Source: a bacterium (GTDB lineage Bacteria; SAR324; NAC60-12). Taken from it: a stretch of DNA of 64,000 nt. Below the pieces are notes generated by a model. The model was given only the letters and a program-made list of their open reading frames with translations. It was not told the DNA's origin and did no database searches. Shown in pieces: positions 16,288 to 40,151 of this stretch (the stretch's first letter is position 1; each line of letters opens with the position of its first letter). Made by a program: the position numbers and the translations under genes. The stretch spans positions 448,001 through 512,000 of the forward strand of contig CBDDTI010000746.1 in NCBI GenBank assembly GCA_965233585.1. Direction: 5' to 3'.

Positions 16288-16290
16288 TTG

Positions 16291-20019: not shown

Positions 20020-20077
20020 ACATAACGTTTAAGTTTATCCACCGAGGAACGACGTCGGCTGGGGCGATTTGTTATAC
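20020..20077 (-). mobile_element. attC-like integron cassette recombination site (58 bp)
   Basis: Minus strand GTATAAC-AAATCGCCCCAGCCGACGTCGTTCCTCGGTGGATAAACTTAAAC-GTTATGT; R'' box overlaps the methylase TAA stop; resembles aadA-type attC. Confidence 0.7.
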
Positions 20078-21816: not shown

Positions 21817-21831
21817 GGTAATGATTTCACC

Positions 21832-21889
21832 GCATAACGACAAAATCTAGCAAGCGGGCTAAAGCCCATCTGCTGGAGTCATGTTCTGG
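21832..21889 (-). mobile_element. attC-like site (58 bp) upstream of the R-M cassette
   Basis: Minus strand CCAGAAC-ATGACTCCAGCAGATGGGCTTTAGCCCGCTTGCTAGATTTTGTC-GTTATGC with central inverted repeat. Confidence 0.6.
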
Positions 21890-21946: not shown

Positions 21947-22744
21947 TCAATCCTTCTTACCTTGTAAAAAGATTTCCAACCCAACCAGTTTGTCTAAAAT
22001 ATAGATGGTGATGAGTGCCATCACAACATACACGACAGACACAGCCGCTAAATCTGGAGTAATGATAGAACGTATAGAATTATAAATTTGGACAGGAAGC
22101 GTCACAATTCTAGCGTCTGTCAAAAAGAGGCTGACCAAAAATTCATTAAAAGCCAGAATAAACATCAACAATGCCCCCGTGATGATGCCCGGTGCCAATG
22201 CTGGTATGGTGATGGTGAAAAAAACTTGCACGGGATTGGCTCCGCAATTTGCCCCAGCTTCTTCTAACTGCGTGTCTAATTTGTTGACTGTTGCACTGAC
22301 TGTCCAGATCATAAAAGGTAGATTGATGATGCAAAGCCCTAATCCCACAGGAAAGAGGCTGCCCAATATTCTGATTTCACCAAAAAACAACATCATTCCA
22401 ATCCCAGAGACCACCAAAGGAATTGTGAAGGGTAGCAATAAATAGACTTGTAAGGCTTTTTCAAACCTCACTTTGTAACGCATCAATGCTAAGGCACACA
22501 AAGTGCCTGAAGGAATGCTGATGATTGTGCAGATGACAGAGACGTATAAAGTCCGCCAAAAAGCGTCAATAAATTCCTCCAGCTCAAACAGCTTGGCATA
22601 CCATTGAAGGGACAAGCCACGGGGAGGAAACTCCAAAATCTCTCCTGCAGTCAAAGACGCCCCAATGATAATGACAGTAGGCAGGCTTAACATGATGACA
22701 ATGCCAATCACAATGGGATAAAGCACTTTGTTTTGATGACTCAT
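21947..22744 (-). CDS. ABC transporter permease (PotC-like)
   Basis: FPP.GLSLQWY, EAA-like loop LEEAGANCGA, TLPVQIY. Confidence 0.9.
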   Translation of the reverse strand: MSHQNKVLYPIVIGIVIMLSLPTVIIIGASLTAGEILEFPPRGLSLQWYAKLFELEEFIDAFWRTLYVSVICTIISIPSGTLCALALMRYKVRFEKALQVYLLLPFTIPLVVSGIGMMLFFGEIRILGSLFPVGLGLCIINLPFMIWTVSATVNKLDTQLEEAGANCGANPVQVFFTITIPALAPGIITGALLMFILAFNEFLVSLFLTDARIVTLPVQIYNSIRSIITPDLAAVSVVYVVMALITIYILDKLVGLEIFLQGKKD

Positions 22745-23634
22745 GTTCGTTCTCCAAGTAAGGTGCTATGAGTGCCAAAGATTCTGAATAAAATCACGAC
22801 TAAAAGACTCCCAATGGTGACTAATATCATGGAAATTGCTGACCCCAAACCTGCATTAGAAAGTTGGAAAAAGCTGTCATAGACACTGCTTGCTATAAAA
22901 TCATTCTGACCACCTCCTAAAATTTCTGGCATGGCAAAATCTGTTAAGGTGAGTGTAAACACGACAACACAAGCCCCGACGATTCCCGGTTTGGCAAGAG
23001 GAATGATGACTTGGAATAAGGTTTCACCCCAACTAGCCCCTAAACTTTCTGACGCCCATTCTAAGTCTTCACTGATGGCTGTCATTGCTGGAATCAGTAG
23101 CAACACCGCAAAAGGTAGCATGTATTGAATTAAACCAAAAATGACTGCAGGGTAGTTATAAATCAAAGTCAAAGATTCCACCCCAAGAACATTCAAGATT
23201 TGGTTCAAAATGCCTTCTTGACCAAGAATGATAAGCCACCCATAAGCCCTGACGACTTGACCAATAAAAAAAGGCAAAAAAAGTGTGATGAGTAAAAACT
23301 TTCTCATCATTGCAGAACGGCATCTGACCAAGACGTAAGCATAAGGGAATGCAAGAATGAGTGTAAAAAAGGTCACCAACACTGCACCCAAAAAGGTACG
23401 CCAAAGGACTTTTAGATTGGTTGGCTCAAAGAATTCTAAGTAATTGGACAAAGTGTAGGCTTCCTTCAGCCGATAAGTCGCAAGGTCTAGTTCATGTAAA
23501 CTTGCCTCCAAAATATAACCAAGCCCTATGACTAAAACGCCCACTAAAGCAATAGCAGGCAATAAAAAGCCAAAGGGAATCCAAAATTTTTGGTAAGGTG
23601 ATTTAGCAAACATGAACTTTGACCTAACTCCCAA
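22741..23634 (-). CDS. ABC transporter permease (PotB-like)
   Basis: VRAYGW..IL..EG.LN, LEWASESLGAS, P.ILGG. Confidence 0.9.
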   Translation of the reverse strand: MGVRSKFMFAKSPYQKFWIPFGFLLPAIALVGVLVIGLGYILEASLHELDLATYRLKEAYTLSNYLEFFEPTNLKVLWRTFLGAVLVTFFTLILAFPYAYVLVRCRSAMMRKFLLITLFLPFFIGQVVRAYGWLIILGQEGILNQILNVLGVESLTLIYNYPAVIFGLIQYMLPFAVLLLIPAMTAISEDLEWASESLGASWGETLFQVIIPLAKPGIVGACVVVFTLTLTDFAMPEILGGGQNDFIASSVYDSFFQLSNAGLGSAISMILVTIGSLLVVILFRIFGTHSTLLGERT

Positions 23635-23644
23635 TCAGTTGACT

Positions 23645-24766
23645 TTATCCTTTGAAGATTTTGTTAAATTCTCTAAACCAAATCGGCTGATTTTCAACAA
23701 GGACAGGGGAAGGCACGCTGACCAACTTTGCAAAATCTTCAGGCTTGGTTGGATAAGAGGGGTCTCCCACTAAGTCAGCAGGGGGTTCAATTCCCGGATA
23801 AACAGGAGGTAAGCCCAGCAAAGAACACCATTTTTGTTGAGCATTTTTGCTGATTGCAAAGTTGACTAACTCCTTTGCCCAATATTCTTCATTTTCAGGC
23901 AGTCCTTTTGGAATCCAAAGCCCATCAGTATCTACTTTGCAACCCTCCTGTGGAATTGTCCACTGGACGTCAATCCCTTTTTGTTTGGCGGCTCTAGCAT
24001 TGACTGAAATGGTGCAAGCCACGTCAATCTCACCTTTCTGAAACCACGTGGTAAAGTCAGGGTCTTCACCAAGCAAGGGTTCATTTTGCTTGAGCAAGCG
24101 ATAAAAGTTGTAGCCTGCCTCCATATTTTTAGGAATGTCTTCAAAAGTTCCACCGCCTGCAATCACAGCAATCGGGTTAAAGCCGATACCGTCATCGTAG
24201 AGAGCAGAACGTCTTTTGAATTTGGGATTTAATAAAACATTCCAAAATTTAGGAGGACCATAAGGAAAGGCTTCTGTTCGGTAAGCACAAACATAGACAT
24301 AGGCATAAGTATTGACCAATGGGTAGCCTGTTAAGCCCTTAGGCTTTGCCAATGGGAGTAAATTTTTAAGATTGGATAAACCGCTTAAATCCACAGTCGC
24401 ACCCCTTAATGCTGAAATAGTGGCATTCGTGGTGGTATCCCAGTTGACATGAATAGGGGGAACTCGTCCCTGGTCCACAGCCGCCCAAATCTTAGGCTTA
24501 ATTTCATTGTCTTCTGTAAAATCTAAGCGGACTTTAACTCCTGTTTGCTCAGTGAACGGGTCAGTCACTCCTGCCTTCAGAGCTTCTCCCCACGAGCCAC
24601 CCCATGCACGAATGATCAACTCCTTAGGTTTTCTAGGTGCTGCGCTTAAAATAGAGGGCATGACCATTGCCCCAGCGGCAGTCACGGCGACACCTTTGAC
24701 AAAATCCCTTCGGTCTATTTCATTAGTTGTAGCTTCTTTTTGATTTGACAAATTAGATGTTTTCAT
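23645..24766 (-). CDS. Polyamine/PotD-type solute-binding protein with Tat signal
   Basis: DRRDFVK twin-arginine signal; WGGSW..A....V..PF...TGV; PQEG. Confidence 0.88.
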   Translation of the reverse strand: MKTSNLSNQKEATTNEIDRRDFVKGVAVTAAGAMVMPSILSAAPRKPKELIIRAWGGSWGEALKAGVTDPFTEQTGVKVRLDFTEDNEIKPKIWAAVDQGRVPPIHVNWDTTTNATISALRGATVDLSGLSNLKNLLPLAKPKGLTGYPLVNTYAYVYVCAYRTEAFPYGPPKFWNVLLNPKFKRRSALYDDGIGFNPIAVIAGGGTFEDIPKNMEAGYNFYRLLKQNEPLLGEDPDFTTWFQKGEIDVACTISVNARAAKQKGIDVQWTIPQEGCKVDTDGLWIPKGLPENEEYWAKELVNFAISKNAQQKWCSLLGLPPVYPGIEPPADLVGDPSYPTKPEDFAKLVSVPSPVLVENQPIWFREFNKIFKG

Positions 24767-24830
24767 AATCTTTTCTCTTGTTAGGATAAATAAAAATACA
24801 ATTAAAAATGGGTTAAAAAAATCAATATTG

Positions 24831-25940
24831 TTATGTCACAGCACCCTCCTTTGACAATAGTGGAAAGAGATGAATGTCTTTTGCATGACAACCTAACTGC
24901 ACACTCGCCCCAATTTCTAAAAGTGTATGCTGGTGATGTAGCAAAACCGACAAAGATTGACCGCAAGCAGAGATTTTATAGACGATTCTGTCCCCTTCAA
25001 AAATCATCTGTTCTACAAGACCTTGCCAGACATTGTCAAATGGCTGATTCTGTGTGGAATCCTCCCCTGTGACGATGTGCAAATTTTCTGCTTTGATGTT
25101 GCAAAACAAGGGGTCTCCTGCCTGAACGTTTTTAAGCAGATTTGTAGATTTCATTTCAGTCTGGAAAGCATTGAATCTGATACATGTTTGGTCAATAGAC
25201 TGAATGTGAGCTTGAAAGGTATTGCTTAACCCTATAAAATTTGCCACAAAAAGCGTTTGAGGTTTTTGATAGACCGCAGTAGGTTTGTCATGCTGTTCTA
25301 CTTGAGCCTCATTCATTACCACGATATGGTCTGACATGACCAGAGCTTCTTTTTGATTGTGTGTCACATTGATTGTCGTGATTCCTAATTCCTGTTGAAT
25401 GCGTCTAAATTCCAGTTGCATCTCTTCTTGGAGTTTTTTGTCTAGTGCTGACAAAGGTTCGTCTAACAACAACACATCTGGACTAAAGGACAAGGCTCTT
25501 GCAATGGCAATACGTTGTTGTTGACCCCCAGAGAGTTCATGGATTCTTCGGTCTCCTAAGCCTTCCAGACGGACTAACTTCAAATAATGTTGAACAATTT
25601 CAGGAATGTCCTGTTTGGGAAATTTCCGCATTTTCAAAGGATACGCAATATTTTGTGAAGCGTTCATGTGTGGAAACAAAGCCAATTTTTGAAACACCAT
25701 GCCGATAGAACGACGATGCGGAGGAAGGTTTTCACTAGACTGTCCATCAATCAGAATATGCCCCTCATCAGGAGAATCAAACCCTGCAATAATTTTGAGC
25801 AGTGTCGTTTTACCACAGCCACTAGGTCCAACAATCGTCAAGAACGTACCTTGGTCAACTACAATACTGACGTTTTTTAAGGCTTGCAACGTCCCAAAAG
25901 ATTTAGAGATGTTTTGAATTTCAATCATTTTACATTTCAA
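24831..25940 (-). CDS. ABC transporter ATP-binding subunit (PotA-like)
   Basis: GPSGCGKT, LSGGQQQR, LLLDEPLSALD, C-terminal TOBE-like region. Confidence 0.93.
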   Translation of the reverse strand: MKCKMIEIQNISKSFGTLQALKNVSIVVDQGTFLTIVGPSGCGKTTLLKIIAGFDSPDEGHILIDGQSSENLPPHRRSIGMVFQKLALFPHMNASQNIAYPLKMRKFPKQDIPEIVQHYLKLVRLEGLGDRRIHELSGGQQQRIAIARALSFSPDVLLLDEPLSALDKKLQEEMQLEFRRIQQELGITTINVTHNQKEALVMSDHIVVMNEAQVEQHDKPTAVYQKPQTLFVANFIGLSNTFQAHIQSIDQTCIRFNAFQTEMKSTNLLKNVQAGDPLFCNIKAENLHIVTGEDSTQNQPFDNVWQGLVEQMIFEGDRIVYKISACGQSLSVLLHHQHTLLEIGASVQLGCHAKDIHLFPLLSKEGAVT

Positions 25941-27265
25941 CCATGATGAGCGTTTTCAGATTTAATATATTCAAAAAACTTGACAAAGTCATCACTTCCT
26001 TTGAGGGGTTTTTGTGCCGCTTTTATAGCTTGGCAGAATCCGATGAGGGAGCTTGTTGGATTGTGTGATGAATCAGGAGTAACCAATAAATTCATCACTA
26101 AGATAGGACAGGTAAAAAGTGCCAAACGGACGGTTCTTTCAAATGTCTCAAACGGAATGTCTTCTTTCAAAGCCTTGTACAATGGCTTCCAAAAATTCAC
26201 TGCTTTAGAAGTCAAAAATCCTTCTCTAATGTCGCTTAGAATATAGTTTGTTTCCACACAAATTTTATCTTGTTCTACACAAGCCTTGACGTCATAGTGC
26301 TGACTAAAAAAGTCGGGTTCGTAAAGCCAAAAAGGGTGTGCAAAGATGTTATGAAAAGTCGCTTTCACTTCTGCTAATAAGGCAGGAATTTGGGCATTGG
26401 CAAAAGCTGGGTCAAATAGACTAAAGGTCTGGTCTTCATGCAGCCAGACGTTCGCATGGTGGGCATCGCCATGTGAGTTAAAAGCAAAACCGGGCAACAG
26501 TGCCTGAGGGGTCAAATCAACAAGGCAGGCTTCTAAACAACTTTTTAAAGTTTCAGGATAATCTATTTGGTTAATAGACCACTTCAAATCAATCAACTCC
26601 TCAAAAGGAAGACGAAGGACTTCTCCATTGAAACCTTGAAAGACAGCCGTTTGATTTTTGTAAAATGACTGAATCCGCCCTCCGATTTCTTCATAACAAG
26701 TAGGAGGTTTTGACAAATCATTGACTAAACGGTGATAAAAAAGTTGGAAAATAGGTTGATGGATTCCTTCAATCCCTTGAGTTTGATGTAATGTCTTCAA
26801 AGCAATTTTGGAAAAGTATTGGTCTATTTTTTCTTCAATCGCAATCAATTCATTTGCATTGAAAGAGCGATTTTCTTTTGAGGACTTACCTTTTTCATAG
26901 TCTGAACAAACATCAGCAAATCTGGAGTCTTGAATACGTTTGTAAATGACAATTTGTTGGTTTGGTGTCGTGTTTGAAAATAAAGGTTCTTGGACTGGAT
27001 AGCCTGCCTCTTTGAGAACCTTGGCTTGATAATACTCGCTGACTTGTTCCTTTTCATTTTCTTCTGTATGGAACTTAAAAAAATACTCGTTAGCATGGTG
27101 GTCGCTCATCAAACCATTGACAGAATTGAGGCTATACTGATCCTGATTGATACAGAGATTTTGCACTACAAGAGGTGTGGTGTCCTGAATCAAATGTTTC
27201 AAAGCTGAAGTTGCACCTGAAAGGTCTTGGTTTTTAATCAACTGATGAATGCTTTGCGTATCCAT
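25937..27265 (-). CDS. APH/choline-kinase-like phosphotransferase fold protein
   Basis: YFFK (VAIK-like), HGDAHHANV catalytic loop, downstream LFDP. Confidence 0.65.
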   Translation of the reverse strand: MDTQSIHQLIKNQDLSGATSALKHLIQDTTPLVVQNLCINQDQYSLNSVNGLMSDHHANEYFFKFHTEENEKEQVSEYYQAKVLKEAGYPVQEPLFSNTTPNQQIVIYKRIQDSRFADVCSDYEKGKSSKENRSFNANELIAIEEKIDQYFSKIALKTLHQTQGIEGIHQPIFQLFYHRLVNDLSKPPTCYEEIGGRIQSFYKNQTAVFQGFNGEVLRLPFEELIDLKWSINQIDYPETLKSCLEACLVDLTPQALLPGFAFNSHGDAHHANVWLHEDQTFSLFDPAFANAQIPALLAEVKATFHNIFAHPFWLYEPDFFSQHYDVKACVEQDKICVETNYILSDIREGFLTSKAVNFWKPLYKALKEDIPFETFERTVRLALFTCPILVMNLLVTPDSSHNPTSSLIGFCQAIKAAQKPLKGSDDFVKFFEYIKSENAHHG

Positions 27266-27289: not shown

Positions 27290-28812
27290 CTAAAGAATCC
27301 CATAATCGTTTAATTTTCCAGACATCAGCAATTCATAGATGGCAGAAATATCATCAGCAAAGTAGCGGTCTTTCTGATATGAAGGTACTTTTGCACGAAT
27401 GATTGCTTTTTTTTCTTCCAACACCGCACTAGTTTTGAGGGGTGTTAGAAAATCTAATCCTTGGGTTGAGGCTAATGCTTCAATCGCTAAAATATGAGCC
27501 ACATTTTCATTGATGCTTTGCAGACGCCTTGCGGCATAAGTCGCCATACTGACATGGTCTTCTTGATTGGCTGAGGTCGGAATGCTGTCCACGGTGCTTG
27601 GATGCGCCAGTGATTTGTTCTCACTTGCCAATGCGGCGGCGCTGACTTGAGCAATCATAAACCCAGAGTTTAACCCAGAGTTTTGCACTAAGAAGGGAGG
27701 ATGTCCGCTTAAATGTTGGTCAATCAACATCGCAACTCTCCTTTCTGACATACTGCCAATTTCAGAAAGTGCAATCGCCATCAAATCAGCTACCATGCCA
27801 ACAGGTTCTGCATGAAAGTTGCCCCCAGAGATAATTTCTTGAGTCTCATCAAAAACAAGAGGATTGTCAGACACTCCGTTTGCTTCTCTCATCAAGATTT
27901 GACCCGCATGCCTTAAATTATCCAACACTGCACCCATGACTTGAGGTTGACACCTCAGACAGTAGGGGTCTTGTACCCGCTGGCATACTTCTCCTTGATG
28001 GCTTGACCAAATAGGGCTGTCTTTCAACAAATGACGCAAATAAGCAGCAACTTCTTTTTGCCCCTCTTGATTTCTGACATGGTTGATGTTCTCACTAAAA
28101 GGAGCATGCGAGCCTTTGATAGATTCCAAAGTCAACGCCCCTACGACCAATGCAGAACCAAAAAGTCGCTCTGCAGTCAAAAAAGCTGAGAGGGCTAGGG
28201 CATTAGAAACTTGAGTTCCGTTGATCATGCCCAGACCTTCTTTGGCACTGAGAGTCAAAGGAGAAAGCCCAACTTGTGCTAATACTTCTTGAGAGTCTCT
28301 TGTTTGACCTTGATAGCAAACTTTGCCAATTCCTATCAAGGCACAAGTCAAATGTGCAAGAGGGGCTAAGTCGCCAGATGCTCCAACAGACCCTTTTTCA
28401 GGAATGATTGGATAAATTTTTTGATTGTAAAACTCAATCAATAAATCTATCAACTCCTTTCTGACCCCAGAATAACCAGCAGCTAAGCTGCAGGCTTTGA
28501 GTACCAAAATCAATCCAACAACTCTGTCATCTAGCGGCTGACCCACACCTGCAGAATGAGAAAGAATTAAATTTTTTGTAAAATACTTAAATCTTGCTTG
28601 GCAATTTTGGTGTTAGCCAATAATCCAAAACCCGTATTGATTCCATACACTGCCTTGTCAGATTCTGCTTTTTGTTGCACCAGCTCATAAGCTGCTTGGA
28701 TTTTGCCGTCATTTTCATCAGACAGCTTCACTGGTGTTTGATGAAAGTAAATGGCTTTCAGTTGTTCTATGGTAACGTCTTGAGGTTTGAGGGTGAGTTT
28801 AGCTGTGTTCAT
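27290..28812 (-). pseudogene. hutH: Histidine ammonia-lyase split by a 1-nt frameshift
   Basis: N-part VYGINTGFG (28567..28812) and C-part GSVGASGDLAPLAH, QDPY.LRC, GGNFH, ANQEDHVSM (27290..28546); adding one A to the A6 run (T6 at 28572-28577) restores LQKNLILSHSAGVG. Confidence 0.88.
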
Positions 28813-28906: not shown

Positions 28907-30487
28907 TTAAACCGATAGACATAAACCTTTGAGAAAATGACTAGTTTTTGAAATATCATCAGACATGAATCTATCACTATCAAAAAAGGGAACAATCTTT
29001 CTAAACATTTTCAGCAAAGATTTGGTTTTCTTACCAATCTTTAGATTAGCCGATTTCTGCTGACGAAGATCAATTGCCTGAGCTGCATGGAATAGTTCTA
29101 TGGCAAGAACAATGAAACTATTGTCAATTTGGTTCTGAACATTGGTCGCTACCATAACGGAATTAGTTCCTATGTCTTCAAGACCTCTTGCAAGTGGCAA
29201 ATAATCAAATGACGAAGGCATTGCCAAAGAACGAATTTCAGCAGAAACTGCCAACATTGGAATTTCCAGAGCAACCAACGAATGCTGAGTTTCATCATGG
29301 CTCAAATAACGTGGCAGTCCTGTGAAATAAGGGTCAACCAATTTAGTAACCCTTTGTGCTGAGGCACTCGCCATGTGAGCAATAAGGATGGATAATTCTT
29401 CAAGAGCTACGACCCAAAAGACTGGGCAAAAATTCCCCGTAGGTAGAACTGCACCACCATCTGTATAGAACTTCTTGGCAATTTGCAATTCAGAGGTTGG
29501 TTGTGACCCAACAATAACAGTTGGATTATCATCAGAAGAATTAATTTGTAGGCTAAGTAAACCCTCCAATCTATCCAAATTAGACCGCATAGCTGCCAAT
29601 AAATGAGGTCCATTGCGAAAACTCAGTGCATCTTGAAAGGGACGACTGGTGTCTTCGTCCCACAAATAGCTACCTTTCAATATGTCTAATAGCTCACGAG
29701 ACGTTTCCTTCAAGCCTGGGAATGCTCTTTGTCCAACCACATCAGGTAAAATTGGTGTTATATTGCCATTTACGGCTTCTAAGCTAGTGGCAAAAACTAA
29801 ATGACCAATGCTACAAAGTTGCTTTGCTTCAAACAATAGAAGGACTGCTTTGGCTGCCGCATATGAATTATTACTGAGAATAGCTAATCCGTCTTTAGCA
29901 AAGGGTTTGAGTGGTTCTTTTTTTGTGAGTTTAAGTGCCTCATAGGCAGTCATTTTGACTCCCTTGTAATACACTTTGCCATCGCCAATCATAGCAAGTC
30001 CCACATGACTCATCAAGACGACATCACCAACACCAACAGACCCCTTACTAGGAATAACAGGGCAAATATCATGATTAATAAAGTGGATAAACATATCCGC
30101 AACAGCAGGACTAACGCCGGGACCACCAGTTAAAATGGTATTCAGCCGAATTGCCATAGCTGCCCGCACTAGCTTCGTGTCGCTATCTGGTCCAACTGCC
30201 ACTGCATGAGAACGCAAAAGTCCAATATTGTATCTAACAGAGGCTTGAAATACTTCTGGGGATATTTCACCTTTGGCATTGACCATTTTACGATCTTTAT
30301 TAAGACCTACCCCAACAGTCAAACCATAAATGTCATGCCCAGCCATGGTGGCATTCAGTAAAACCTGATGCGCCTTTTCAACACATTCCAAGGCATCAGC
30401 TGATACCAACACTTGTTTCCCATTAGCGATTTTCACAATATCTTCAATACTTGCTATCGCTTTTGTCAGTTTGACACACTTATCCAT
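28907..30487 (-). CDS. HAL/PAL-family lyase lacking the MIO tripeptide (ergothionase/trimethylhistidine TMA-lyase-like)
   Basis: IYGLTVGVGLNKD loop, GSVGVGD instead of GSVGASGD, KDGLAILSNN, QDALSFR, NSSDDNP, GNF. Confidence 0.8.
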   Translation of the reverse strand: MDKCVKLTKAIASIEDIVKIANGKQVLVSADALECVEKAHQVLLNATMAGHDIYGLTVGVGLNKDRKMVNAKGEISPEVFQASVRYNIGLLRSHAVAVGPDSDTKLVRAAMAIRLNTILTGGPGVSPAVADMFIHFINHDICPVIPSKGSVGVGDVVLMSHVGLAMIGDGKVYYKGVKMTAYEALKLTKKEPLKPFAKDGLAILSNNSYAAAKAVLLLFEAKQLCSIGHLVFATSLEAVNGNITPILPDVVGQRAFPGLKETSRELLDILKGSYLWDEDTSRPFQDALSFRNGPHLLAAMRSNLDRLEGLLSLQINSSDDNPTVIVGSQPTSELQIAKKFYTDGGAVLPTGNFCPVFWVVALEELSILIAHMASASAQRVTKLVDPYFTGLPRYLSHDETQHSLVALEIPMLAVSAEIRSLAMPSSFDYLPLARGLEDIGTNSVMVATNVQNQIDNSFIVLAIELFHAAQAIDLRQQKSANLKIGKKTKSLLKMFRKIVPFFDSDRFMSDDISKTSHFLKGLCLSV

Positions 30488-30499
30488 AGTATTTATATG

Positions 30500-31519
30500 T
30501 TAGTTTGAGGTCACCATAGCCTCAACAGTGTCGTGTAGATTGATGTATCCCACAGATTCGCCAGAATCATTGACAACTTGGGCTTGGCTTTTTTTTGAAC
30601 GCACCATGGTACTCACTGCTTTTTCAATGAAGGTATCTTCCGTTACTGTGACCGCATCTGAAAGATTAATATTTTTTTTGAACATGATAGATTTCACAGT
30701 GACCACTTGACCTCGGTTCACATCCTTTACAAAATTACGAATATAGTCATCAGCTGGGTTAAGAATAATATTCTCTGCTGTCCCCTTTTGAATCACAGAG
30801 CCATCTCTGAGAATAGCGATATTATCACCTAATTTGATGGCTTCATCTAAGTCGTGGGTAATAAAGATGATTGTTTTTTTCAACTCCGCCTGAAGGTTTA
30901 GTAATGCCTTCTGCATATCAATACGAATCAACGGATCAAGTGCAGAAAATGCCTCGTCCATCAATAGAATCTCAGCATCATTAGTCAATGCACGAGCTAA
31001 TCCGACCCGTTGTTGCATACCTCCTGATAGTTGCTTGGGATAATGGTCTTCAAAACCTTCTAAGCCTACCCTTACAATCCATTTTTCAGCTTGTTTAAGG
31101 GCTTCTTTTTTAGGAAGACCTTGAATCGTCAAGCCGTACGCTGCATTTTCAATGACTTTGCGATGGGGAAGTAGTGCAAATTTTTGGAACACCATTGCTG
31201 TTTTGTAACGTCGGAAGTGACGTAATTCAGAAACTGACATGTTACAGATGTCAACGTCCTGATACAGAATTTGACCAACAGTGGGTTCCACCAAACGGTT
31301 AATATGACGAACGAGGGTAGATTTTCCAGAACCAGACAATCCCATGACCACCTGAATTTTTCCAGATTTGATGGTCAAATTAATATCTTTCAACCCTAAA
31401 ACGTGACCGTGTTTTTCGTTCAACTCTACTTTAGATAGTCCGTTTTTGACATCATCAATATAACGTGTGCCGTATGGTCCAAAAATTTTGTATAAATTTT
31501 CAATCCTAATATCATTCAT
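30500..31519 (-). CDS. Betaine/proline/histidine ABC transporter ATPase (ProV/HutV-like)
   Basis: MGLSGSGKS, LSGGMQQRVGLARAL, DEAFSALDPLIR, C-terminal CBS-like region. Confidence 0.92.
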   Translation of the reverse strand: MNDIRIENLYKIFGPYGTRYIDDVKNGLSKVELNEKHGHVLGLKDINLTIKSGKIQVVMGLSGSGKSTLVRHINRLVEPTVGQILYQDVDICNMSVSELRHFRRYKTAMVFQKFALLPHRKVIENAAYGLTIQGLPKKEALKQAEKWIVRVGLEGFEDHYPKQLSGGMQQRVGLARALTNDAEILLMDEAFSALDPLIRIDMQKALLNLQAELKKTIIFITHDLDEAIKLGDNIAILRDGSVIQKGTAENIILNPADDYIRNFVKDVNRGQVVTVKSIMFKKNINLSDAVTVTEDTFIEKAVSTMVRSKKSQAQVVNDSGESVGYINLHDTVEAMVTSN

Positions 31520-32396
31520 CTTTGATTCCTAGGTGCTTTTGCAATCTTTTCCCGTATGCTTGAGTTGAGCGATCCAACAAGATGGCAATGGCAACAATAG
31601 CCAAACCATTCACTAAACCCATGGTAAAGTATTGGTTGCTAATAGCTTGTAATACAGGTTGCCCAAGTCCTTTGACACCAATCATAGAAGCGATAACAAC
31701 CATTGCCAAAGACATCATAATACATTGATTGATGCCTGCCATAATTGTTGGAAGAGCGAGTGGCAACTGCACATCTCTGAGTTTCTGCCAATCAGACGAA
31801 CCGAAGGCATCAGCAGCTTCAATCATATCTTTATCCACCAAACGAATACCAAGGTTAGTCAAACGTATCATTGGGGGCAAGGCATAAACGACAACTGCGA
31901 TCATTCCTGGAATTTTGCCCAGACCAAAAATCATGACTACTGGGATTAAATAGACAAATGGAGGCATGGTCTGCATCATATCAAGCAATGGATTTACAAA
32001 TGATTGAACACGATCTGACTTAGCACAAGCAATTCCGAAAGGAATACCGATGCTGATCGCCAGCAAAGCACAGACTGTAATCATTGCAATCGTACGCATT
32101 GTGTCGTCCCACATACCCAAATAACCAATCAAGCACATAGAAATAAGGGTGCCGATTGCGATACGAACACTTCGGCTCATACCATAAACGATGGCTACTA
32201 TAACAGCTAATACAACAAACCACGGCAACGAAATGAGTAATTTCTCAAACCAAATCAAAAACATTTTAAGAGGTATGAAAACCTCCTCAATAGATGCACC
32301 ATATTCACGTGCAAAATCCTTAAAATAGGAATCTAAAGTCACTCTCAATCTTCGTAAATCAGAGCGACCAAGAGAAGGGAAATCAATCCAATCCAT
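31512..32396 (-). CDS. Betaine-type ABC permease (ProW/HutW-like)
   Basis: LDMMQTMP.FVYLIP, RLTNLGIR, EAADAFG, IMAGINQ. Confidence 0.92.
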   Translation of the reverse strand: MDWIDFPSLGRSDLRRLRVTLDSYFKDFAREYGASIEEVFIPLKMFLIWFEKLLISLPWFVVLAVIVAIVYGMSRSVRIAIGTLISMCLIGYLGMWDDTMRTIAMITVCALLAISIGIPFGIACAKSDRVQSFVNPLLDMMQTMPPFVYLIPVVMIFGLGKIPGMIAVVVYALPPMIRLTNLGIRLVDKDMIEAADAFGSSDWQKLRDVQLPLALPTIMAGINQCIMMSLAMVVIASMIGVKGLGQPVLQAISNQYFTMGLVNGLAIVAIAILLDRSTQAYGKRLQKHLGIKDE

Positions 32397-32415
32397 GTTA
32401 TTTTCTATCCTGCAA

Positions 32416-32442
32416 CGTGGTACAGGCTAAGCCTGTACCACG
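32416..32442. terminator. Perfect 12-bp stem hairpin between SBP and permease (terminator/mRNA stabiliser)
   Basis: CGTGGTACAGGC-TAA-GCCTGTACCACG. Confidence 0.6.
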
Positions 32443-32449
32443 ATTGATG

Positions 32450-33460
32450 TTATAAAGCCGCTTTTATTTTCTTTGCTACATCCACTGGAACCCACTTTTC
32501 CCAAACTTCTGAATAGTTCTCTAGGAAGTAATACGCTCCATCTTCGTTATTAGCCTGATTGTCAGTCATCCAAGCCATCAAAGAACTGGCAGTCGCACTA
32601 GTCCAGCTACGTTTTTTGAAGTATTCCAATGCAGTTTTTTCTTTTTTGGCAAAACGAGCAGAAACCAGTGTGTCAATTTCTGAAGGACCCCAGCCATTTA
32701 TTTTAGGATTTGGACAATTCACAACAGAAGAACAATTTTTATATTCTTCTTCAGAAAATGGTACATTGCCATCTAACAGAGTCATTTTGTATTTGCCTAG
32801 CATTGCTGTTGGTGACCAATAATATCCAAGCCAACCTTCTTTTCTCTCAAAGGCTCGTGCGATTGAGCCGTCTAAACCAGCCCCAGAGCCTGAATCTACT
32901 AATTCAAACCCCTTAGAACCTGCATCATAGGCACGGAAGTAATTTTCTGTGATGATCTGACAATTCCAACCTGCTGGGCAGTTAAACAATGCACCTTTGC
33001 TAGAATCTTCAGCGCCCGGGAATAGGTCTGGACGTGCTAAAGCATCTTCTACGGACTGGATATTATGTTGTTCTGCAATATAATGAGGAACCCACCACCC
33101 TTCTTGGGCACCATCTTTTAGAGGATGCCCTGCGATCATAATCCTTCCTGCTGCAACAGCTTCATCTAGCTTTCTTTTAACGCTGTGTACCCAAATTTCC
33201 GGTGCAATGTCTGGTTGCCCTTTTTCTGACATGGAGGCAAATGTCGGTCCTGTGTCTCCTGGTACTAGTTCTACACTACAACCATATCCACTTTCTAGGA
33301 TCACACGGTCAATTTGTGCCAACACGCCGGCAGATGTCCAGTTCATTTCAGCAACGGTCACATCACCACAGCCCTCAGATGCCAGTGCTGGTATATGACT
33401 GAACACAGACGCACAACCCAGCACAAGTGTTGTGGTCACAGTTTTTTTTAATAATTTCAT
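32450..33460 (-). CDS. Glycine betaine-family solute-binding protein (ProX/HutX-like)
   Basis: Signal peptide; CG.V..AEMNW.S, GYGC, PEIW, EGWWVP, CPAGW.C, GYYWSPT. Confidence 0.9.
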   Translation of the reverse strand: MKLLKKTVTTTLVLGCASVFSHIPALASEGCGDVTVAEMNWTSAGVLAQIDRVILESGYGCSVELVPGDTGPTFASMSEKGQPDIAPEIWVHSVKRKLDEAVAAGRIMIAGHPLKDGAQEGWWVPHYIAEQHNIQSVEDALARPDLFPGAEDSSKGALFNCPAGWNCQIITENYFRAYDAGSKGFELVDSGSGAGLDGSIARAFERKEGWLGYYWSPTAMLGKYKMTLLDGNVPFSEEEYKNCSSVVNCPNPKINGWGPSEIDTLVSARFAKKEKTALEYFKKRSWTSATASSLMAWMTDNQANNEDGAYYFLENYSEVWEKWVPVDVAKKIKAAL

Positions 33461-33731
33461 TTTGTAACCTATTTTAAATTTTAAACATTTGATATTTGAT
33501 TTATCTATACATTTAGCAATGCGTCATGAGTTTAGTACGCTTGCCAAATGTCATTTTATTTAGCAAAAAGAACAACAATCTCTGAAAGAGGTGGTGAATT
33601 ACAAGCTGGCAACGTAAGCAAGCTAAAATAATAAGCTCTCAATATGATTGGTAATTGTATGTTGCACATAATTCATACTATTTAAGTGAGTTTAAAACTA
33701 ACTCAAGTTTAAAGGGAGTTTATTATTCTGG

Positions 33732-35384
33732 CTACTTCACCATTGGCAAGTCAAGATGTTGCTCCTTAGCTTTTTGAATGGCAATGTCATAGCCTGCATC
33801 GGCATGCCGCATGACTCCTGTTGCAGGGTCATTAGTGAGGACGTTTTGGAGTCTTTGTTTGGCGTCATCAGTGCCATCTGCCACAATCACCACTCCTGAA
33901 TGTTGTGAAAACCCCATTCCCACACCTCCGCCATGGTGCAAACTGACCCAAGTTGCACCTCCTGCTGTATTTAATAATGCGTTGAGCAATGCCCAGTCAG
34001 ACACAACATCGCTGCCATCTTTCATGGCTTCTGTCTCTCGGTTTGGGCTACACACTGACCCTGAGTCTAAATGGTCTCTACCAATCACGATGGGTGCTTT
34101 GAGTTCACCAGTTTTGACCATTTCATTAAAGGCAACTCCTGCTTTGGCACGTTCTCCTGCACCAATCCAGCAAATTCTTGCAGGCAGTCCTTGAAAGTGG
34201 ATTTTGGACTTGGCTTGGTCTAGCCAACGGTGTAGTGCTTCATTTTCAGGAAAAAGCGATTTGACTTTCTCATCAGTTTTGTAAATATCTTCTGCGTCCC
34301 CTGACAATGCAACCCATCTGAAAGGACCGATGCCCTGACAAAATAAATCTCTGATATACAAGGGGACAAATCCCTTGAAGTCAAAAGCATTTGTGATGCC
34401 TTCTTCGTATGCCATCTGCCTAATGTTGTTGCCATAGTCAAAAGTAGGAATGCCTTTTTGTTGAAAGCCCAACATGGCTTGCACTTGAATTGCCATAGAG
34501 GCTTTGGCTTCTTTGATGAATGCTTCTGATGCGTTTTGTCTTTGTCTCTTGGCTTTTTCTAAATTGTAACCCAAAGGTAGGTAACCATTGAGGGGGTCAT
34601 GGGCGCTTGTTTGGTCTGTGACTGCATCAGGTAAGAAGTCACTTTGTAGAATTTGGGGATAAATTTCTGCGGCATTACCAAGTAATCCGACAGACAGAAC
34701 TTGGTTGTTCTCTTTGGCATTTTGAATTTTTGCGATGGCTTCTTCCAAAGAATAGGCTTTTTCATCGCAGTAGCCTGTCTCAATTCTTTTGTCTATGCGG
34801 CTTTCATCGCATTCAATGGCAATCATAGAAAACCCTGCAATGGTTGCGGCTAGAGGTTGAGCGCCTCCCATGCCTCCAAGCCCTGCTGTTAGGATCCATT
34901 TTCCTTGAACGTCTCCCCCAAAATGCTTTTTCCCCATCGCAACAAAGGTTTCATAAGTCCCTTGAACAATGCCTTGTGAGCCGATGTAAATCCAAGACCC
35001 TGCAGTCATTTGTCCATACATCATCAAGCCTTTTTTGTCTAATTCATGGAACGTCTCCCAGTTGGCTTTGTAGGGGACAATGTTAGAATTGGCTATCAGA
35101 ACTCTTGGAGCGTGAGTGTGTGTTTTAAAGACGCCAACAGGTTTGCCTGACTGCACAAGCAGTGTTTCATTTTCTTCTAAACGTTGCAGGACTTCTACGA
35201 TTTTGTGGTAGCATTCCCAGTTTCTTGCCGCCTTGCCAATTCCTCCATAAACGATTAAGTTTTCTGGAGCTTCTGCCACTTCTGGGTCTAAATTGTTCAT
35301 CAGCATTCTCATTGCCGCTTCGCAAACCCATGATTTGGCTGTTTTTGTTGTCCCTCTTGGAGCTTTAATTACTGTATTCATCAT
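33732..35384 (-). CDS. hutU: Urocanate hydratase
   Basis: [56 protein letters not shown]; start moved to MMNTV. Confidence 0.96.
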
Positions 35385-35403
35385 TTTTTTAAAGAAAGAA
35401 TCA

Positions 35404-35428
35404 TTTATCATTGACAATCAATGATAAA
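35404..35428. promoter_or_regulatory. Perfect 11-bp inverted repeat in the hutU/hutI divergent promoter; candidate operator
   Basis: TTTATCATTGA-CAA-TCAATGATAAA, containing a TTGACA hexamer. Confidence 0.55.
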
Positions 35429-35478
35429 CATCATTAAAATAATTGTCAATACCAATTTACAAAGTTTTAGGATTTTTT

Positions 35479-36705
35479 ATGACTAATCAAGTATTTATCA
35501 ATGCAAACATTGCTTTTTTAGATGATGCAAACCGTCTCCAGATTCTCAAAAACCATTTTTTAATTGTTCAAAATGGACAGATTGCTCAAATAGACACGAT
35601 GGCTCACTTCAATCATCAAAGTCAGGAAAATGTCTATGACGTCAACCACCAACTGTTGACGGCTGGTTTGATTGATTGTCATACACATTTAGTCTATGGA
35701 GGGGATCGGACTTTGGAGTTTGAGGAAAGATTAAATGGAGTCTCTTATGCAGACATTGCCAAACGAGGCGGGGGCATCAATGCCACAATTCAAAGTACTA
35801 GAGGAGAGAGTTTTGAAAAGATTTATCAGGACTCATGCCGTCGTTTACAAGGGTTGATGAACGAAGGAGTGACGACTATTGAAATCAAAAGCGGTTATGG
35901 TTTGAACACACAAAGTGAAATCAAAATGCTACAAATTGCAGACTTGCTTGCAAAAAATCATGCCGTACACATTGAAAAAACTTTTTTAGGTGCGCATACC
36001 ACTCCGCCAGAATATCAAAATCGCTCGCAACAATACATGGACTACGTTTGCAATGACATGCTGGAAGAGGTTCACCGCTTAGGGTTGTGTAGCAGTGTTG
36101 ATGCTTATTGCGAGCATTTAGCATTTAATGTGAAAGAAGTCAGGCAGTTGTTTGAAAAAGCAAAAGCACTGGGTTTACCTGTCAAGTTACACGCAGACCA
36201 GTTTTCTCAAATAGGCGCTGTGGAGCTGGCTTGTGAATTTGAAGCATTGTCAGTAGATCATCTGGAATATACCGATGTCAGAGGCGTCCAGTCCATAGCA
36301 GCCAGCAAGACAGTTGCAGTTTTGTTGCCCGGGGCGTATTACATGTTAAAAGAAACGCAAAAGCCTCCTGTCCAAATTTTAAGAGATTTTGACATTCCTA
36401 TTGCCGTAGCGACTGATTTGAACCCTGGCACCTCTCCTTTGTGTTCTTTACATTTAGCAATGAACATGGCTAGTGTGATTTTTGGATTAACAGTAGATGA
36501 GGTTTTTTGTGGAGTGACTCAAAATGCCGCTTTGGCATTGGGATTGTCAAACAAGAAAGGAAACATCAAAGTAGGGTATGATGCTGACTTTGCCATCTGG
36601 AATGTCAAGCACCCTAGAGAATTGATAGCCTCTTACATACCCAATCGGCTGTCTGCTCGCGTGGTCAATGGAGAAGTCTTACAAACCAAAAGTAGTGTCG
36701 CTTAA
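35479..36705 (+). CDS. hutI: Imidazolonepropionase
   Basis: GLIDCHTH, GGGI, E.KSGYGL, TFLGAH, KLHADQ, DHLE, ATD.NPGTS; start moved to MTNQV. Confidence 0.95.
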   Translation: MTNQVFINANIAFLDDANRLQILKNHFLIVQNGQIAQIDTMAHFNHQSQENVYDVNHQLLTAGLIDCHTHLVYGGDRTLEFEERLNGVSYADIAKRGGGINATIQSTRGESFEKIYQDSCRRLQGLMNEGVTTIEIKSGYGLNTQSEIKMLQIADLLAKNHAVHIEKTFLGAHTTPPEYQNRSQQYMDYVCNDMLEEVHRLGLCSSVDAYCEHLAFNVKEVRQLFEKAKALGLPVKLHADQFSQIGAVELACEFEALSVDHLEYTDVRGVQSIAASKTVAVLLPGAYYMLKETQKPPVQILRDFDIPIAVATDLNPGTSPLCSLHLAMNMASVIFGLTVDEVFCGVTQNAALALGLSNKKGNIKVGYDADFAIWNVKHPRELIASYIPNRLSARVVNGEVLQTKSSVA

Positions 36706-37811: not shown

Positions 37812-40151
37812 TCAAGGACCAAATGCCCAAACATCGTTTTTGCAAATTCCATCCCATTCGTCCTCTCCTCCCAGCACCCAGAGTTTGCCATTGAACACGA
37901 CACTGCTGTGAGAACCCCTTTCTGACCAGTCTGCATTGCCAGTGACTTTTGTCCAATTCGCTCCATCAGAAGAACTCCAAACATCGTTTTTTCCAACTAA
38001 ATTTCTGTCAAATCCTCCCAGCACCCAGAGTTTGCCATTGAACACGACACTGCTGTGATCATCCCTTGCTGACCAGCCTGCATTGCTAGTGACTTTTGTC
38101 CAATTCGCTCCATCAGAAGAACTCCAAACATCGTTTTTGTAACTTCCGCCCTCTCCTCCCAGCACCCAGAGTTTGCTATTGAACACGACACTGGTGTGAA
38201 CCCACCTTTCTGACCAGCCTGCATCGCTAGTGACTTTTGTCCAATTCGCTCCATCAGAAGAACTCCAAACATCGTTTTTGTAACTTCCATCCCCTCCTCC
38301 CAGCACCCAGAGTTTGCCATTGAACACGACACTGCTGTGACCAGACCTTGCTGACCAGCCTGCATTGCTAGTGACTTTTGTCCAATTCGCTCCATCAGAA
38401 GAACTCCAAACATCGTTTTTGCGACTTCCGTCATATCCTCCCAGCACCCAGAGTTTGCCATTGAACACGACACTGGTGTGATCATTCCTTGCTGACCAGC
38501 CTGCATTGCTAGTGACTTTTGTCCAATTCGCTCCATCAGAAGAACTCCAAACATCGTTTTTGCGACTTCCGTCATATCCTCCCAGCACCCAGAGTTTGCC
38601 ATTGAACACGACACTGCTGTGATCATTCCTTGCTGACCAGCCTGCATTGCCAGTGACTTTTGTCCAATTCGCTCCATCAGAAGAACTCCAAACATCGTTT
38701 TTGTTACTTCCGTCATCTCCTCCCAGCACCCAGAGTTTGCCATTGAACACGACACTGCTGTGATTCCACCTTGCTGACCAGTCTGCATTGCCAGTGACTT
38801 TTGTCCAATTCGCTCCATCAGAAGAACTCCAAACATCGTTTTTGCGACCTCCGCCATATCCTCCCAGCACCCAGAGTTTGCCATTGAACACGACACTGCT
38901 GTGATCATCCCTTGCTGACCAGCCTGCATTGCTAGTGACTTTTGTCCAATTCGCTCCATCAGAAGAACTCCAAACATCGTTTTTGTTACTTCCATCCCAT
39001 CCTCCCAGCACCCAGAGTTTGCCATTGAACACGACACTGCTGTGATCATTCCTTGCTGACCAGCCTGCATTGCTAGTGACTTTTGTCCAATTCGCTCCAT
39101 CAGAAGAACTCCAAACATCGTTTTTGTAACTTCCATCCCATCCTCCCAGCACCCAGAGTTTGCCATTGAACACGACACTGGTGTGATCATTCCTTGCTGA
39201 CCAGCCTGCATTGTTAGTGACTTTTGTCCAATTCGCTCCATCAGAAGAACTCCAAACATCGTTTTTGTCATCTCCGTCATCTCCTCCCAGCACCCAGAGT
39301 TTGCCATTGAACACGACACTGGTGTGCTCATTCCTTGCTGACCAGCCTGCATTGCTAGTGACTTTTGTCCAATTCGCTCCATCAGAAGAACTCCAAACAT
39401 CGTTTTTGTTACTTCCGTCATATCCTCCCAGCACCCAGAGTTTGCCATTGAACACGACACTGCTGTGATCATTCCTTGCTGACCAGCTTTCTTCGATTGG
39501 CTTCCAAGAGTATTTGGAGATGTCAATGCTTGGAGGTTTTAGTTTGGCAGCAATGGCTTGGTCATAGCAAGCCCAGCCTGATGCAGGCGTGTTGCCTGAT
39601 GCTTTGACACGGACGCACAACTTGCCTGACGCAATGGCATCGTCTCCAAAACTAAAAGGGCTGGTGCAGTCTGTGATTTGTCCAGAGGTGGCACTTGTGC
39701 CATGAGTGGTGCATTCGTAACTCTTGCCTGAATCAGTAGCAAACGTTAAGGTTCTGCCTGAAATAGACAAGCTGGAAGGTTTGGCTAGTTTTTGAGGTGT
39801 TGGGGTCGTAGCAGCAATCGCTTGGTCATAGCAACTCCAATCAGAAGCAGGCGTGTTGCCTGATGCTTTGACACGGACGCACAACTTGCCTGACGCAATG
39901 GCGTTGTCTCCAAAACTAAAAGGGCTGGTGCAGTCTGTGATTTGTTCAGAAGTGGCACTTGTGCCATGAGTGGTGCATTCGTAACTCTTGTCTGAATCAG
40001 TGGCAAAGGTGAGCGTTCTGCCTGAAATAGACAAGCTGGAAGGTTTGGCTAGTTTTTGAGGTGTTTCTTTTTTGTTTTCTTTGTTGTTGCCAGAAGAACT
40101 CCCACCACTACTAGACGAACTTCCATCATCTTCTGCACAAGCAGAAATCAC
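37812..40151 (-). CDS. Surface lipoprotein: two Cys-rich stalk domains + 12 Kelch-like repeats; 5' end out of frame with its probable ATG (40486)
   Basis: Lipobox VISAC with in-frame upstream hydrophobic stretch; 47-aa repeat WSAR..H.SVVFNGKLWVLGG....KNDVWSSSDGANWTKVT. Confidence 0.85.
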   Translation of the reverse strand: MISACAEDDGSSSSSGGSSSGNNKENKKETPQKLAKPSSLSISGRTLTFATDSDKSYECTTHGTSATSEQITDCTSPFSFGDNAIASGKLCVRVKASGNTPASDWSCYDQAIAATTPTPQKLAKPSSLSISGRTLTFATDSGKSYECTTHGTSATSGQITDCTSPFSFGDDAIASGKLCVRVKASGNTPASGWACYDQAIAAKLKPPSIDISKYSWKPIEESWSARNDHSSVVFNGKLWVLGGYDGSNKNDVWSSSDGANWTKVTSNAGWSARNEHTSVVFNGKLWVLGGDDGDDKNDVWSSSDGANWTKVTNNAGWSARNDHTSVVFNGKLWVLGGWDGSYKNDVWSSSDGANWTKVTSNAGWSARNDHSSVVFNGKLWVLGGWDGSNKNDVWSSSDGANWTKVTSNAGWSARDDHSSVVFNGKLWVLGGYGGGRKNDVWSSSDGANWTKVTGNADWSARWNHSSVVFNGKLWVLGGDDGSNKNDVWSSSDGANWTKVTGNAGWSARNDHSSVVFNGKLWVLGGYDGSRKNDVWSSSDGANWTKVTSNAGWSARNDHTSVVFNGKLWVLGGYDGSRKNDVWSSSDGANWTKVTSNAGWSARSGHSSVVFNGKLWVLGGGDGSYKNDVWSSSDGANWTKVTSDAGWSERWVHTSVVFNSKLWVLGGEGGSYKNDVWSSSDGANWTKVTSNAGWSARDDHSSVVFNGKLWVLGGFDRNLVGKNDVWSSSDGANWTKVTGNADWSERGSHSSVVFNGKLWVLGGEDEWDGICKNDVWAFGP
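37815..39486 (-). repeat. 12 near-identical 141-bp coding tandem repeats
   Basis: Read directly in DNA and protein. Confidence 0.95.

Follow-up and report, generated by a model that had tools for sequence, protein, structure and literature searches.

A 64,000-nucleotide stretch of DNA from a bacterium of the SAR324 lineage (NAC60-12; GenBank assembly GCA_965233585.1, contig CBDDTI010000746.1, positions 448,001 to 512,000), referred to here as the window, was found to carry a histidine utilization (hut) cluster with a module of four genes inserted between hutU and hutH. The source bacterium appears to belong to an uncultured and probably marine lineage: its UvrC protein shares 73–80% identity with metagenome proteins and 46–52% with proteins named as SAR324 cluster bacterium, which puts it closest to marine SAR324 metagenome-assembled genomes. 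The module encodes a binding protein, permease and ATPase of a betaine-type ATP-binding cassette (ABC) importer and a 526-amino-acid homolog of histidine ammonia-lyase (HAL). By its sequence, this last protein is a trimethylammonia-lyase lacking the 4-methylideneimidazol-5-one (MIO) cofactor and not a histidase, its predicted activity being the elimination of trimethylamine. Hercynine (N-alpha-trimethyl-L-histidine), which would be cleaved to urocanate and trimethylamine, has somewhat better than an even chance of being its main substrate. An earlier reading of the nucleotide sequence (the original prediction) had proposed such a hercynine route for this locus.

The gene order on the minus strand is hutU, an OpuAC-family binding protein, permease, ProV-type ATPase, the lyase and hutH, with the four inserted genes on the same strand as hutU and directly after it (Table 1). 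A gap of 53 bp separates the binding protein and permease genes, the permease and ATPase genes overlap by 8 bp, and 12 bp lie between the ATPase and lyase genes. The placement of the lyase directly downstream of a ProXWV-type ABC system, as described in the original prediction, is thus confirmed. We infer that the four genes are co-transcribed and under HutC control. The hairpin between the binding protein and permease genes possibly acts as an mRNA stabiliser or attenuator.

Family Assignment and Active Site of the Lyase

The lyase matched PF00221 over residues 13–497 (398.5 bits). It scored below the cut-off on every NCBIfam model for HAL, phenylalanine ammonia-lyase, tyrosine ammonia-lyase and aminomutase, including the hutH models TIGR01225 (274.6 bits, cut-off 539.15) and PRK09367 (282.6 bits, cut-off 524). 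The best solved relative identified by phmmer was the ergothionase of Treponema denticola (6S7J; 272.8 bits, 33–34% identity), with HALs at ~165 bits. An AlphaFold2 model of the lyase (predicted local distance difference test score of 84) gave Foldseek query-normalized TM-scores (TMq) of 0.86–0.87 to 6S7J and 0.83 to HAL, although modelling and structure search contributed little beyond the sequence comparison.

At the position of the MIO loop, the lyase reads GSVG-VG-D (residues 149–155) where the hutH product of the window reads GSVG-ASG-D, so that the loop is one residue shorter and has no Ala-Ser-Gly. This difference had been pointed out in the original prediction, together with a YG...GVG.NKD loop; both were located in the lyase open reading frame (ORF), the former within SKGSVGVGDVV and the latter as YGLTVGVGLNKD. 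Among the window lyase and its best 119 homologs, Ala-Ser-Gly was found at the MIO position in none of the 120 proteins and the exact loop YGLTVGVGLNKD was common to 101. The MIO-less motif is a family trait, and a chance expectation is inapplicable since the observation concerns gene content.

The six residue roles reported for a hercynine lyase (Bertsova et al., bioRxiv 10.1101/2025.08.13.670108, section 3.2) were all found to be filled in the alignments: Tyr54 as the base, Gln285, Arg291 and Asn321 at the carboxylate, and His94 and Glu417 at the imidazole. Alignment with the ergothionase likewise showed the catalytic set to be retained, with Ile409 at the site of ergothionase Lys384. Of 136 alignment columns with a conservation of 95% or more across the 119 homologs, the lyase keeps 113; unusual substitutions near active-site motifs include Val153, T157V, S206N, P287A and Y295H. 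The closest match in a GTDB-based genome collection has 53% identity. Judged from these comparisons, the protein is divergent and not decaying. Its ORF is maximal, being bounded by an upstream stop, and begins four residues before the conserved core, which leaves no room for a leader peptide; the lyase is therefore cytoplasmic.

In the T. denticola ergothionase, Lys384 binds the ergothioneine thiolate and is essential (bioRxiv 10.1101/2025.08.13.670108; bioRxiv 10.64898/2026.04.22.720169). The hercynine-specific enzyme Swoo_3913 has Asn439 at this site (bioRxiv 10.1101/2025.08.13.670108), and SO_3299, which uses N(pi)-methyl histidine betaine, has Gln (bioRxiv 10.64898/2026.04.22.720169, section 3.2). 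Ile409 of the window lyase was aligned to Lys384 both by phmmer (against 6S7J) and by MAFFT. Lysine occupies the site in 107 of the 120 proteins mentioned above, and true HALs, the hutH product of the window included, have Gln-Val or Gln-Tyr there. As the site is hydrophobic in the lyase as it is in true HALs, the pocket around imidazole C2 is expected to be HAL-like. With Lys384 replaced by Ile409, a canonical hutU and no ergothioneine partner genes in the window (such genes flank 24 of 81 related lyases), the lyase is predicted not to be an ergothionase, and the preference of the original prediction for hercynine over ergothioneine is favored, with Lys384 as a criterion additional to those it had used. 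Hercynine itself has been found in nine of ten cyanobacterial strains (PMC3826126).

Phylogeny of the Lyase

Trees were built with FastTree (86 rows) and with IQ-TREE in quick mode (44 and 42 rows). The split between MIO-less proteins and MIO-bearing HALs received a support of 100 in the FastTree and both IQ-TREE trees, and the window lyase was nested deep on the MIO-less side by both methods. A grouping of the lyase with MIO-forming HALs, which would run counter to the MIO-independent HAL homolog originally predicted, was looked for in these trees and not found.

The window lyase grouped with Rhizobiales proteins that also lack the lysine (support 99 in FastTree and 98 in IQ-TREE). Addition of P0016, a leaderless metagenome protein from a 2-kb contig with Asp-Val at the Lys384 site, gave a six-member Lys-less clade with a support of 98. 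Its sister group is formed by the lyases of ergothioneine-catabolism clusters, and the window lyase sits within the Lys-less clade on a long branch (0.78–1.07). A periplasmic representative bearing a signal peptide, P0253, has Gln-Asn at the site and falls in another clade. Our guess is that it stands for the Swoo_3913 cluster, in which case the lysine would have been lost independently at least twice.

The Importer

The binding protein scored far below the cut-offs of the ChoX and ProX models. A sequence search of the PDB returned three matches only (7yle, 3tmg, and 2b4l), the best being RnDmpX (7yle, 216 bits) and none being named EgtU. RnDmpX (7YLE) is a binding protein of Roseovarius specific for dimethylsulfoniopropionate (DMSP) (PMC10030565). 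When its pocket was mapped by alignment, an onium cage of W41, W90, W165, and W215 was obtained in the window protein, along with T70, E120, N166, and Y213. Seven of the eight RnDmpX pocket residues (Trp35, Thr64, Trp84, Glu113, Trp152, Ala153, Tyr200, and Trp202) are thereby retained, with Asn166 replacing Ala153. Across 125 homologs (52.9–67% identity), the four Trp are present in 124, Thr64 and Tyr200 are present in all, and the Ala153 and Glu113 sites alone vary. A seven-residue insertion (EDSSKGA) just before Trp165 is common to the closer homologs, whereas RnDmpX is without it.

The DmpX pocket residues were also considered as a criterion for the ligand. This was dropped as non-discriminating, because the residues are retained in soil rhizobia beside hydroxyproline-betaine-like catabolic genes and so are no mark of DMSP specificity. 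The ATPase scored above the proV subfamily cut-off; the best matches of the permease were ChoW and ProW, both below their cut-offs. The binding protein is a predicted onium-carboxylate binder, which is compatible with hercynine but not diagnostic of it.

The hut Gene Set

With hutU, hutH, hutI, hutF, and hutG all located in the window (Table 1), the complete five-step hut pathway is present. The hutU gene product shares ~63–70% identity with those of annotated hutU genes across phyla and 45.8% with a model-confirmed thiourocanate hydratase, and on the thiourocanate hydratase model NF058530 it reached 686 bits (cut-off 930). A tblastn search of the 64-kb window with hutU and a bona fide thiourocanate hydratase as queries found no second urocanase-family gene, in agreement with the single canonical urocanase originally noted. 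No thiohydantoin desulfurase, thiourocanate hydratase or flavocytochrome c was found by tblastn of the window, nor does the window hold a trimethylamine-oxidation gene.

Table 1. Features of the hut cluster and of the inserted module (positions are those of the window; scores are in bits)
Feature	Position	Strand	Evidence or remarks
hutF	12523-13896	-	TIGR02022 476, cut-off 413
hutG	13931-14737	-	TIGR02017 232.7, below cut-off 278.75; best match
hutC repressor	14750-15457	-	TIGR02018 236.6, cut-off 220
hutH, MIO-type histidase (GSVGASGD), frameshifted	27290-28812	-	C-terminal part PRK09367 604.7
Predicted MIO-less HAL-family trimethylammonia-lyase	28907-30487	-	526 aa; PF00221 398.5
ABC ATPase, ProV-type, one C-terminal CBS domain	30500-31519	-	TIGR01186 349, cut-off 326.6; PF00005, PF00571
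ABC permease, ChoW/ProW-like	31512-32396	-	PF00528; TIGR03416 270 (cut-off 363), ProW 256 (cut-off 439)
Hairpin, perfect 12-bp stem, 3-nt loop	32416-32442		Between binding-protein and permease genes
Periplasmic OpuAC-family binding protein, N-terminal signal peptide	32450-33460	-	PF04069 207
Sigma-70-like promoter match, TTGCCA-16-AATAAT	33722-33749	-	10/12, consensus match only; end of hutU, upstream of binding-protein gene
hutU, canonical urocanate hydratase	33732-35417	-	TIGR01228 959.5
Facing promoter-like sites, hutU/hutI	35411-35449		11/12 match each
hutI, imidazolonepropionase	35443-36705	+	TIGR01224 422.6, cut-off 298; divergent from hutU

The hutH gene was found to be split. From the start at 28812, the first 81 codons end at a stop at 28569-28567, and the remaining 418 amino acids lie in another frame, in an ORF at 27290-28546 (minus strand) that encodes the C-terminal part and carries EKGSVGASGDLAP. 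The break is a -1 frameshift within a run of six A at 28572-28577, and addition of one A restores the canonical ...LQKNLILSHSAGVG... The original prediction was right in giving this gene the canonical GSVGASGD, but had overlooked the frameshift, the gene not being intact. Widespread homopolymer error seems unlikely, because the other long ORFs of the window are intact, including those of 1535, 800, and 779 amino acids. The split is either a real pseudogene or a single homopolymer assembly error; if the former, the MIO-less lyase would be the sole intact HAL homolog here.

Two candidate operators were rejected. The Pseudomonas HutC consensus, TGTANNTACA, gave 10 matches in the window with at most one mismatch against 19.9 expected, none of them intergenic in the cluster; this null says nothing on regulation in this phylum. 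A 9-bp inverted repeat between hutU and hutI, ATTGACAAT, amounts to two facing -35 boxes and is a common motif, with 68 matches in the window.

Related Lyase Loci

Eighty-one related lyase loci were compared, 80 from genomes and one from Sinorhizobium meliloti pSymA. Eighty of the lyases are full-length; that of Campylobacter concisus (L016:9905-11533) is in two ORFs, 9905-10486 and 10490-11533, through a frameshift or an in-gene stop. At 24 of the 81 loci, Lys-bearing lyases have thiourocanate hydratase-like, thiohydantoin desulfurase-like and ProP-like major facilitator superfamily (MFS) neighbors, a class assigned by phmmer with the proteins of locus L038 as queries. For L038 and L014, NCBIfam confirmed both thiourocanate hydratase (NF058530; 1013 and 1044 bits, cut-off 930) and thiohydantoin desulfurase (NF058529). 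A flavocytochrome c neighbor, the respiratory type of the Bertsova preprints, was present at 42 loci. Seven loci, those of Lys-less Rhizobiales lyases with Glu-Ala at the site, have a LysR regulator and an OppA-type ABC system, and eight have none of these neighbors.

All 80 full-length relatives have at least 21 more N-terminal residues than the window lyase. On visual inspection the added stretches resemble signal peptides, with the reservation that the ORFs may have been begun too far upstream. Nearest to the window enzyme are the Glu-Ala lyases (L003-L009; Sinorhizobium, Mesorhizobium, Bosea, Aquamicrobium, and Labrys), all of which have leader-like N-termini; each adjoins genes for a GcvA-like LysR regulator and for an ABC system of the OppA/NikA type, and hut genes are absent from the vicinity. 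Leader-like starts were also seen by eye in Lys-bearing lyases of ergothioneine clusters (L014, L019-L047; Burkholderia, Comamonas, Serratia, Pseudomonas lundensis, and others). Cleavage in the periplasm, with thiourocanate imported afterwards, is thereby suggested; in the literature consulted, by contrast, ergothionases are described as typically cytoplasmic.

No OpuAC transporter was seen in the hut loci inspected on one plasmid each of Rhizobium and Parasedimentitalea. Plasmid pRphaN931b of Rhizobium phaseoli carries, beside a complete hut operon with a normal hutH, a second annotated hutH (L087:199-1689, minus strand) without the MIO triad (GS---AGY) and with Gln-Tyr at the ergothionase-Lys site, following a polar-amino-acid-type ABC transporter and a second hutC. 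MIO-less HAL paralogs coupled to transporters in hut loci may be a recurrent theme.

Comparison with Known Systems

Like the window lyase, the histidine betaine trimethylammonia-lyase (HBTL) Swoo_3913 of Shewanella woodyi, compared here by its published description, is a MIO-less PF00221 protein with a neutral residue at the Lys384 site and the same Tyr/Gln/Arg/Asn/His/Glu set, and the reaction predicted for the window lyase is the one it carries out, hercynine to urocanate and trimethylamine. HBTL is, however, periplasmic and coupled to urocanate reductase in anaerobic respiration, whereas the window lyase is leaderless, lies beside an ABC importer and would feed HutU; the residue at the site is Asn in the former and Ile in the latter. 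SO_3299 of Shewanella oneidensis is likewise MIO-less and Lys-less and shows that loss of the lysine moves specificity off ergothioneine. It differs in being periplasmic and flavocytochrome c-linked, in having Gln at the site and in being inactive on hercynine.

The ergothionase Td_ETL (6S7J) and the window lyase have in common the YGLxxGVGxNKD loop and a MIO-less loop of reduced length. The ergothionase clusters of Burkholderia, Pseudomonas, Serratia, and Comamonas have Lys384, NF058530, NF058529, and a ProP-like MFS transporter, all of which the window locus is without. HutH, as represented by HAL of Pseudomonas putida (1B8F/1GKM) and the hutH of the window, has the same fold (TMq 0.83), imidazole and carboxylate ligands, and urocanate as product. 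It is set apart from the lyase by an identity of ~27%, and the lyase lacks Ala-Ser-Gly and hence the MIO and falls below the hutH cut-offs.

The insertion site has a counterpart in Pseudomonas fluorescens SBW25, in which an insertion between hutU and hutH2 holds hutTu, hutXWV, and hutH1, and P. aeruginosa has a similar module; HutH1 of SBW25 is dispensable for growth on histidine (PMC8034625, PMC8871633). The resemblance, drawn from description only, extends to the presence of a ProU-like/HutXWV transporter and a second HAL homolog. DmpXWV is similar to the window importer in its binding-protein pocket (seven of eight residues identical, including the four Trp and Tyr200), but dmpXWV is unlinked to catabolic genes, whereas the window importer abuts the lyase.

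Proposed Route and Alternatives

The module is best explained as an assimilatory feed-in for hercynine, grafted into the hut cluster. The OpuAC-type protein would capture the betaine by means of its four-Trp cage, and the ProW/ProV-type permease and ATPase would import it. The lyase would then bind the carboxylate by Gln285, Arg291, and Asn321 and the unsubstituted imidazole by His94 and Glu417, with Ile409 taking the place of the sulfur-holding lysine of ergothionases. Tyr54 would take the beta-proton and trimethylamine would depart from C-alpha; because trimethylammonium is a good leaving group, no MIO cofactor would be needed. The resulting urocanate would be converted by HutU, HutI, HutF, and HutG to glutamate, formate and ammonia and, by analogy with other hut systems, would also free the HutC repressor, while trimethylamine would be released. 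A fuller version of this route, in which the hut pathway has been re-plumbed onto hercynine, with the canonical histidase inactivated by the frameshift and the importer and a cytoplasmic lyase of a hitherto unrecognized Lys-less lineage supplying urocanate, is tentative and on the doubtful side. Were it to hold, the carbon and nitrogen of hercynine would be assimilated with release of trimethylamine, an unrecognized marine source of this compound would exist, and the locus would be the prototype for the insertions of a second hutH and an ABC transporter in hut loci of Pseudomonas and rhizobia.

Both the substrate and the ligand of the importer are what we infer from these comparisons, and a number of observations weigh against hercynine or against a joint role of the two systems. 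The absence of the lysine is no guarantee of hercynine, as the Lys-less SO_3299 rejects it (bioRxiv 10.64898/2026.04.22.720169). Val153, in GSVG-V-GD, occupies a site at which all 119 close homologs have Glu or Gln; among MIO-less representatives further removed, the site can hold Val, Met, Ala or Leu. The lineage of the window lyase (P0016 and seven Rhizobiales proteins) appears to be without a characterized member and separate from P0253. On the transport side, the nearest solved relative of the binding protein is DMSP-specific, and its closest homologs, encoded on replicons of Paracoccus, Rhodobacter, Sinorhizobium, and Rhizobium, are linked neither to a lyase nor to hut genes. Furthermore, none of the 81 related loci has a gene for an OpuAC-type binding protein or permease, or a hutU of the canonical type, next to the lyase, so that the coupling of lyase and importer has no comparative support.

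The first of these points also speaks for a different substrate, namely another N-alpha-trimethylated imidazole amino acid such as the N(pi)- or the N(tau)-methyl form of histidine betaine or an oxidized derivative of ergothioneine like the sulfonate, which would yield a modified urocanate. N(pi)-methyl histidine betaine is the specific substrate of SO_3299, which does not act on hercynine (bioRxiv 10.64898/2026.04.22.720169), and the window lineage is uncharacterized, with its long branch and odd substitutions near active-site motifs. Yet the sole nearby urocanase-family enzyme is the canonical HutU, the ring-nitrogen contacts Glu417 and His94 are retained, and natural N(pi)-methyl histidine betaine is, according to the same preprint, not indicated by any data; we regard such a substrate as unlikely. 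Conversion of imported ergothioneine to thiourocanate and trimethylamine is very unlikely. An ergothionase is the best solved relative of the lyase and the sister clade lies in ergothioneine-catabolism clusters, but the essential lysine is replaced by Ile409, the window has no thiourocanate hydratase or thiohydantoin desulfurase, and the PDB sequence search detected no similarity of the binding protein to EgtU-type chains.

It could also be that lyase and transporter are unlinked, the latter being a histidine or general compatible-solute/DMSP importer of the HutXWV/DmpXWV type and the former a dispensable or non-catalytic histidase paralog like HutH1. The retention of seven of eight RnDmpX pocket residues is in keeping with this, as are the DmpX homologs reported in SAR324 (PMC10030565), although the same pocket residues occur in the soil rhizobial proteins encoded beside hydroxyproline-betaine-like catabolic genes. 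The 12-bp spacing of the ATPase and lyase genes suggests co-expression, the catalytic residues are conserved in a full-length protein and, being MIO-less, the lyase cannot be a back-up histidase, which makes this arrangement rather improbable. Least probable, and very unlikely, is cleavage of DMSP or of a non-imidazole aromatic betaine (that of tryptophan, tyrosine or phenylalanine), with the position in the hut cluster incidental. PF00221 does include Phe- and Tyr-specific enzymes, and importers of this family accept a variety of onium compounds (PMC10030565). Nevertheless, His94 and Glu417, which are the imidazole ligands in HAL and in the characterized betaine lyases, are conserved, the leaving group of DMSP is at C3 with a different geometry, and the lyase gene lies between hutU and hutH.

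This type of enzyme activity is already known from a 2025 preprint (bioRxiv 10.1101/2025.08.13.670108). Within the literature searched, which omits most subscription journals, hercynine cleavage is treated only in the two Bertsova preprints, where the lyases concerned (2025-26) are periplasmic makers of electron acceptors for anaerobic respiration. A cytoplasmic location, the pairing with a betaine-type importer, embedding between hutU and hutH and a separate Lys-less lineage appear not to be in print. If the proposed route to urocanate is correct, bacteria would also use hercynine as a nutrient. It would add a further source of trimethylamine, with a bearing on marine methylated-amine cycling and, by extension, on trimethylamine and its N-oxide in the gut. 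It would also offer a concrete function for the extra histidase-like genes and betaine-type transporters in hut operons, and add an independent second Lys-less lineage in which the discrimination between hercynine and ergothioneine could be studied.

Other Genes in the Window

Several further genes lie on the minus strand downstream of hutH. Directly after it, the region 21947-27265 begins with a 442-amino-acid protein with an HGDxHxxN kinase-like motif and no Pfam or NCBIfam match, for which the nearest Atlas clusters bear the name 'phosphotransferase family', although no more than 10% of their members carry APH. The stop codon of its gene overlaps the start codon of a PotA-like ATPase gene, and an SBP_bac_8 binding protein (no NCBIfam match) and two permeases are encoded in the same region. 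At 20072-21843 (minus strand), an EcoRV-type restriction endonuclease (PF09233, 395 bits) and a D12-class adenine methyltransferase are encoded in a 2-kb stretch of 33% GC, compared with ~41% around it, amid the co-directional run of hut-associated genes; they look like an inserted restriction-modification cassette. Between hutC and the second ABC system (15523-19893, minus strand) lie four genes, for a histidinol dehydrogenase paralog (TIGR00069, 423 bits), a glycerol-dehydrogenase-like iron-containing alcohol dehydrogenase, an FMN-dependent alpha-hydroxy-acid dehydrogenase and a short-chain dehydrogenase/reductase. These may, speculatively, provide a feed-in for histidinol, imidazole lactate or the like.

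Elsewhere, Kelch repeats make up nearly the whole of a 779-amino-acid protein at 37812-40151 (minus strand), which gives it a eukaryote-like architecture; its gene lies in locally GC-rich DNA, with a GC content of 0.487 in the 38–40 kb bin. A 1535-amino-acid ORF at 48829-53436 (minus strand) encodes a fused carboxylase with carboxyltransferase (ACCA/Carboxyl_trans) and biotin carboxylase domains. At 257-4740 (plus strand), two tandem paralogous 7TMR-DISM receptors of 700 and 706 amino acids are fused to adenylate/guanylate cyclase domains.

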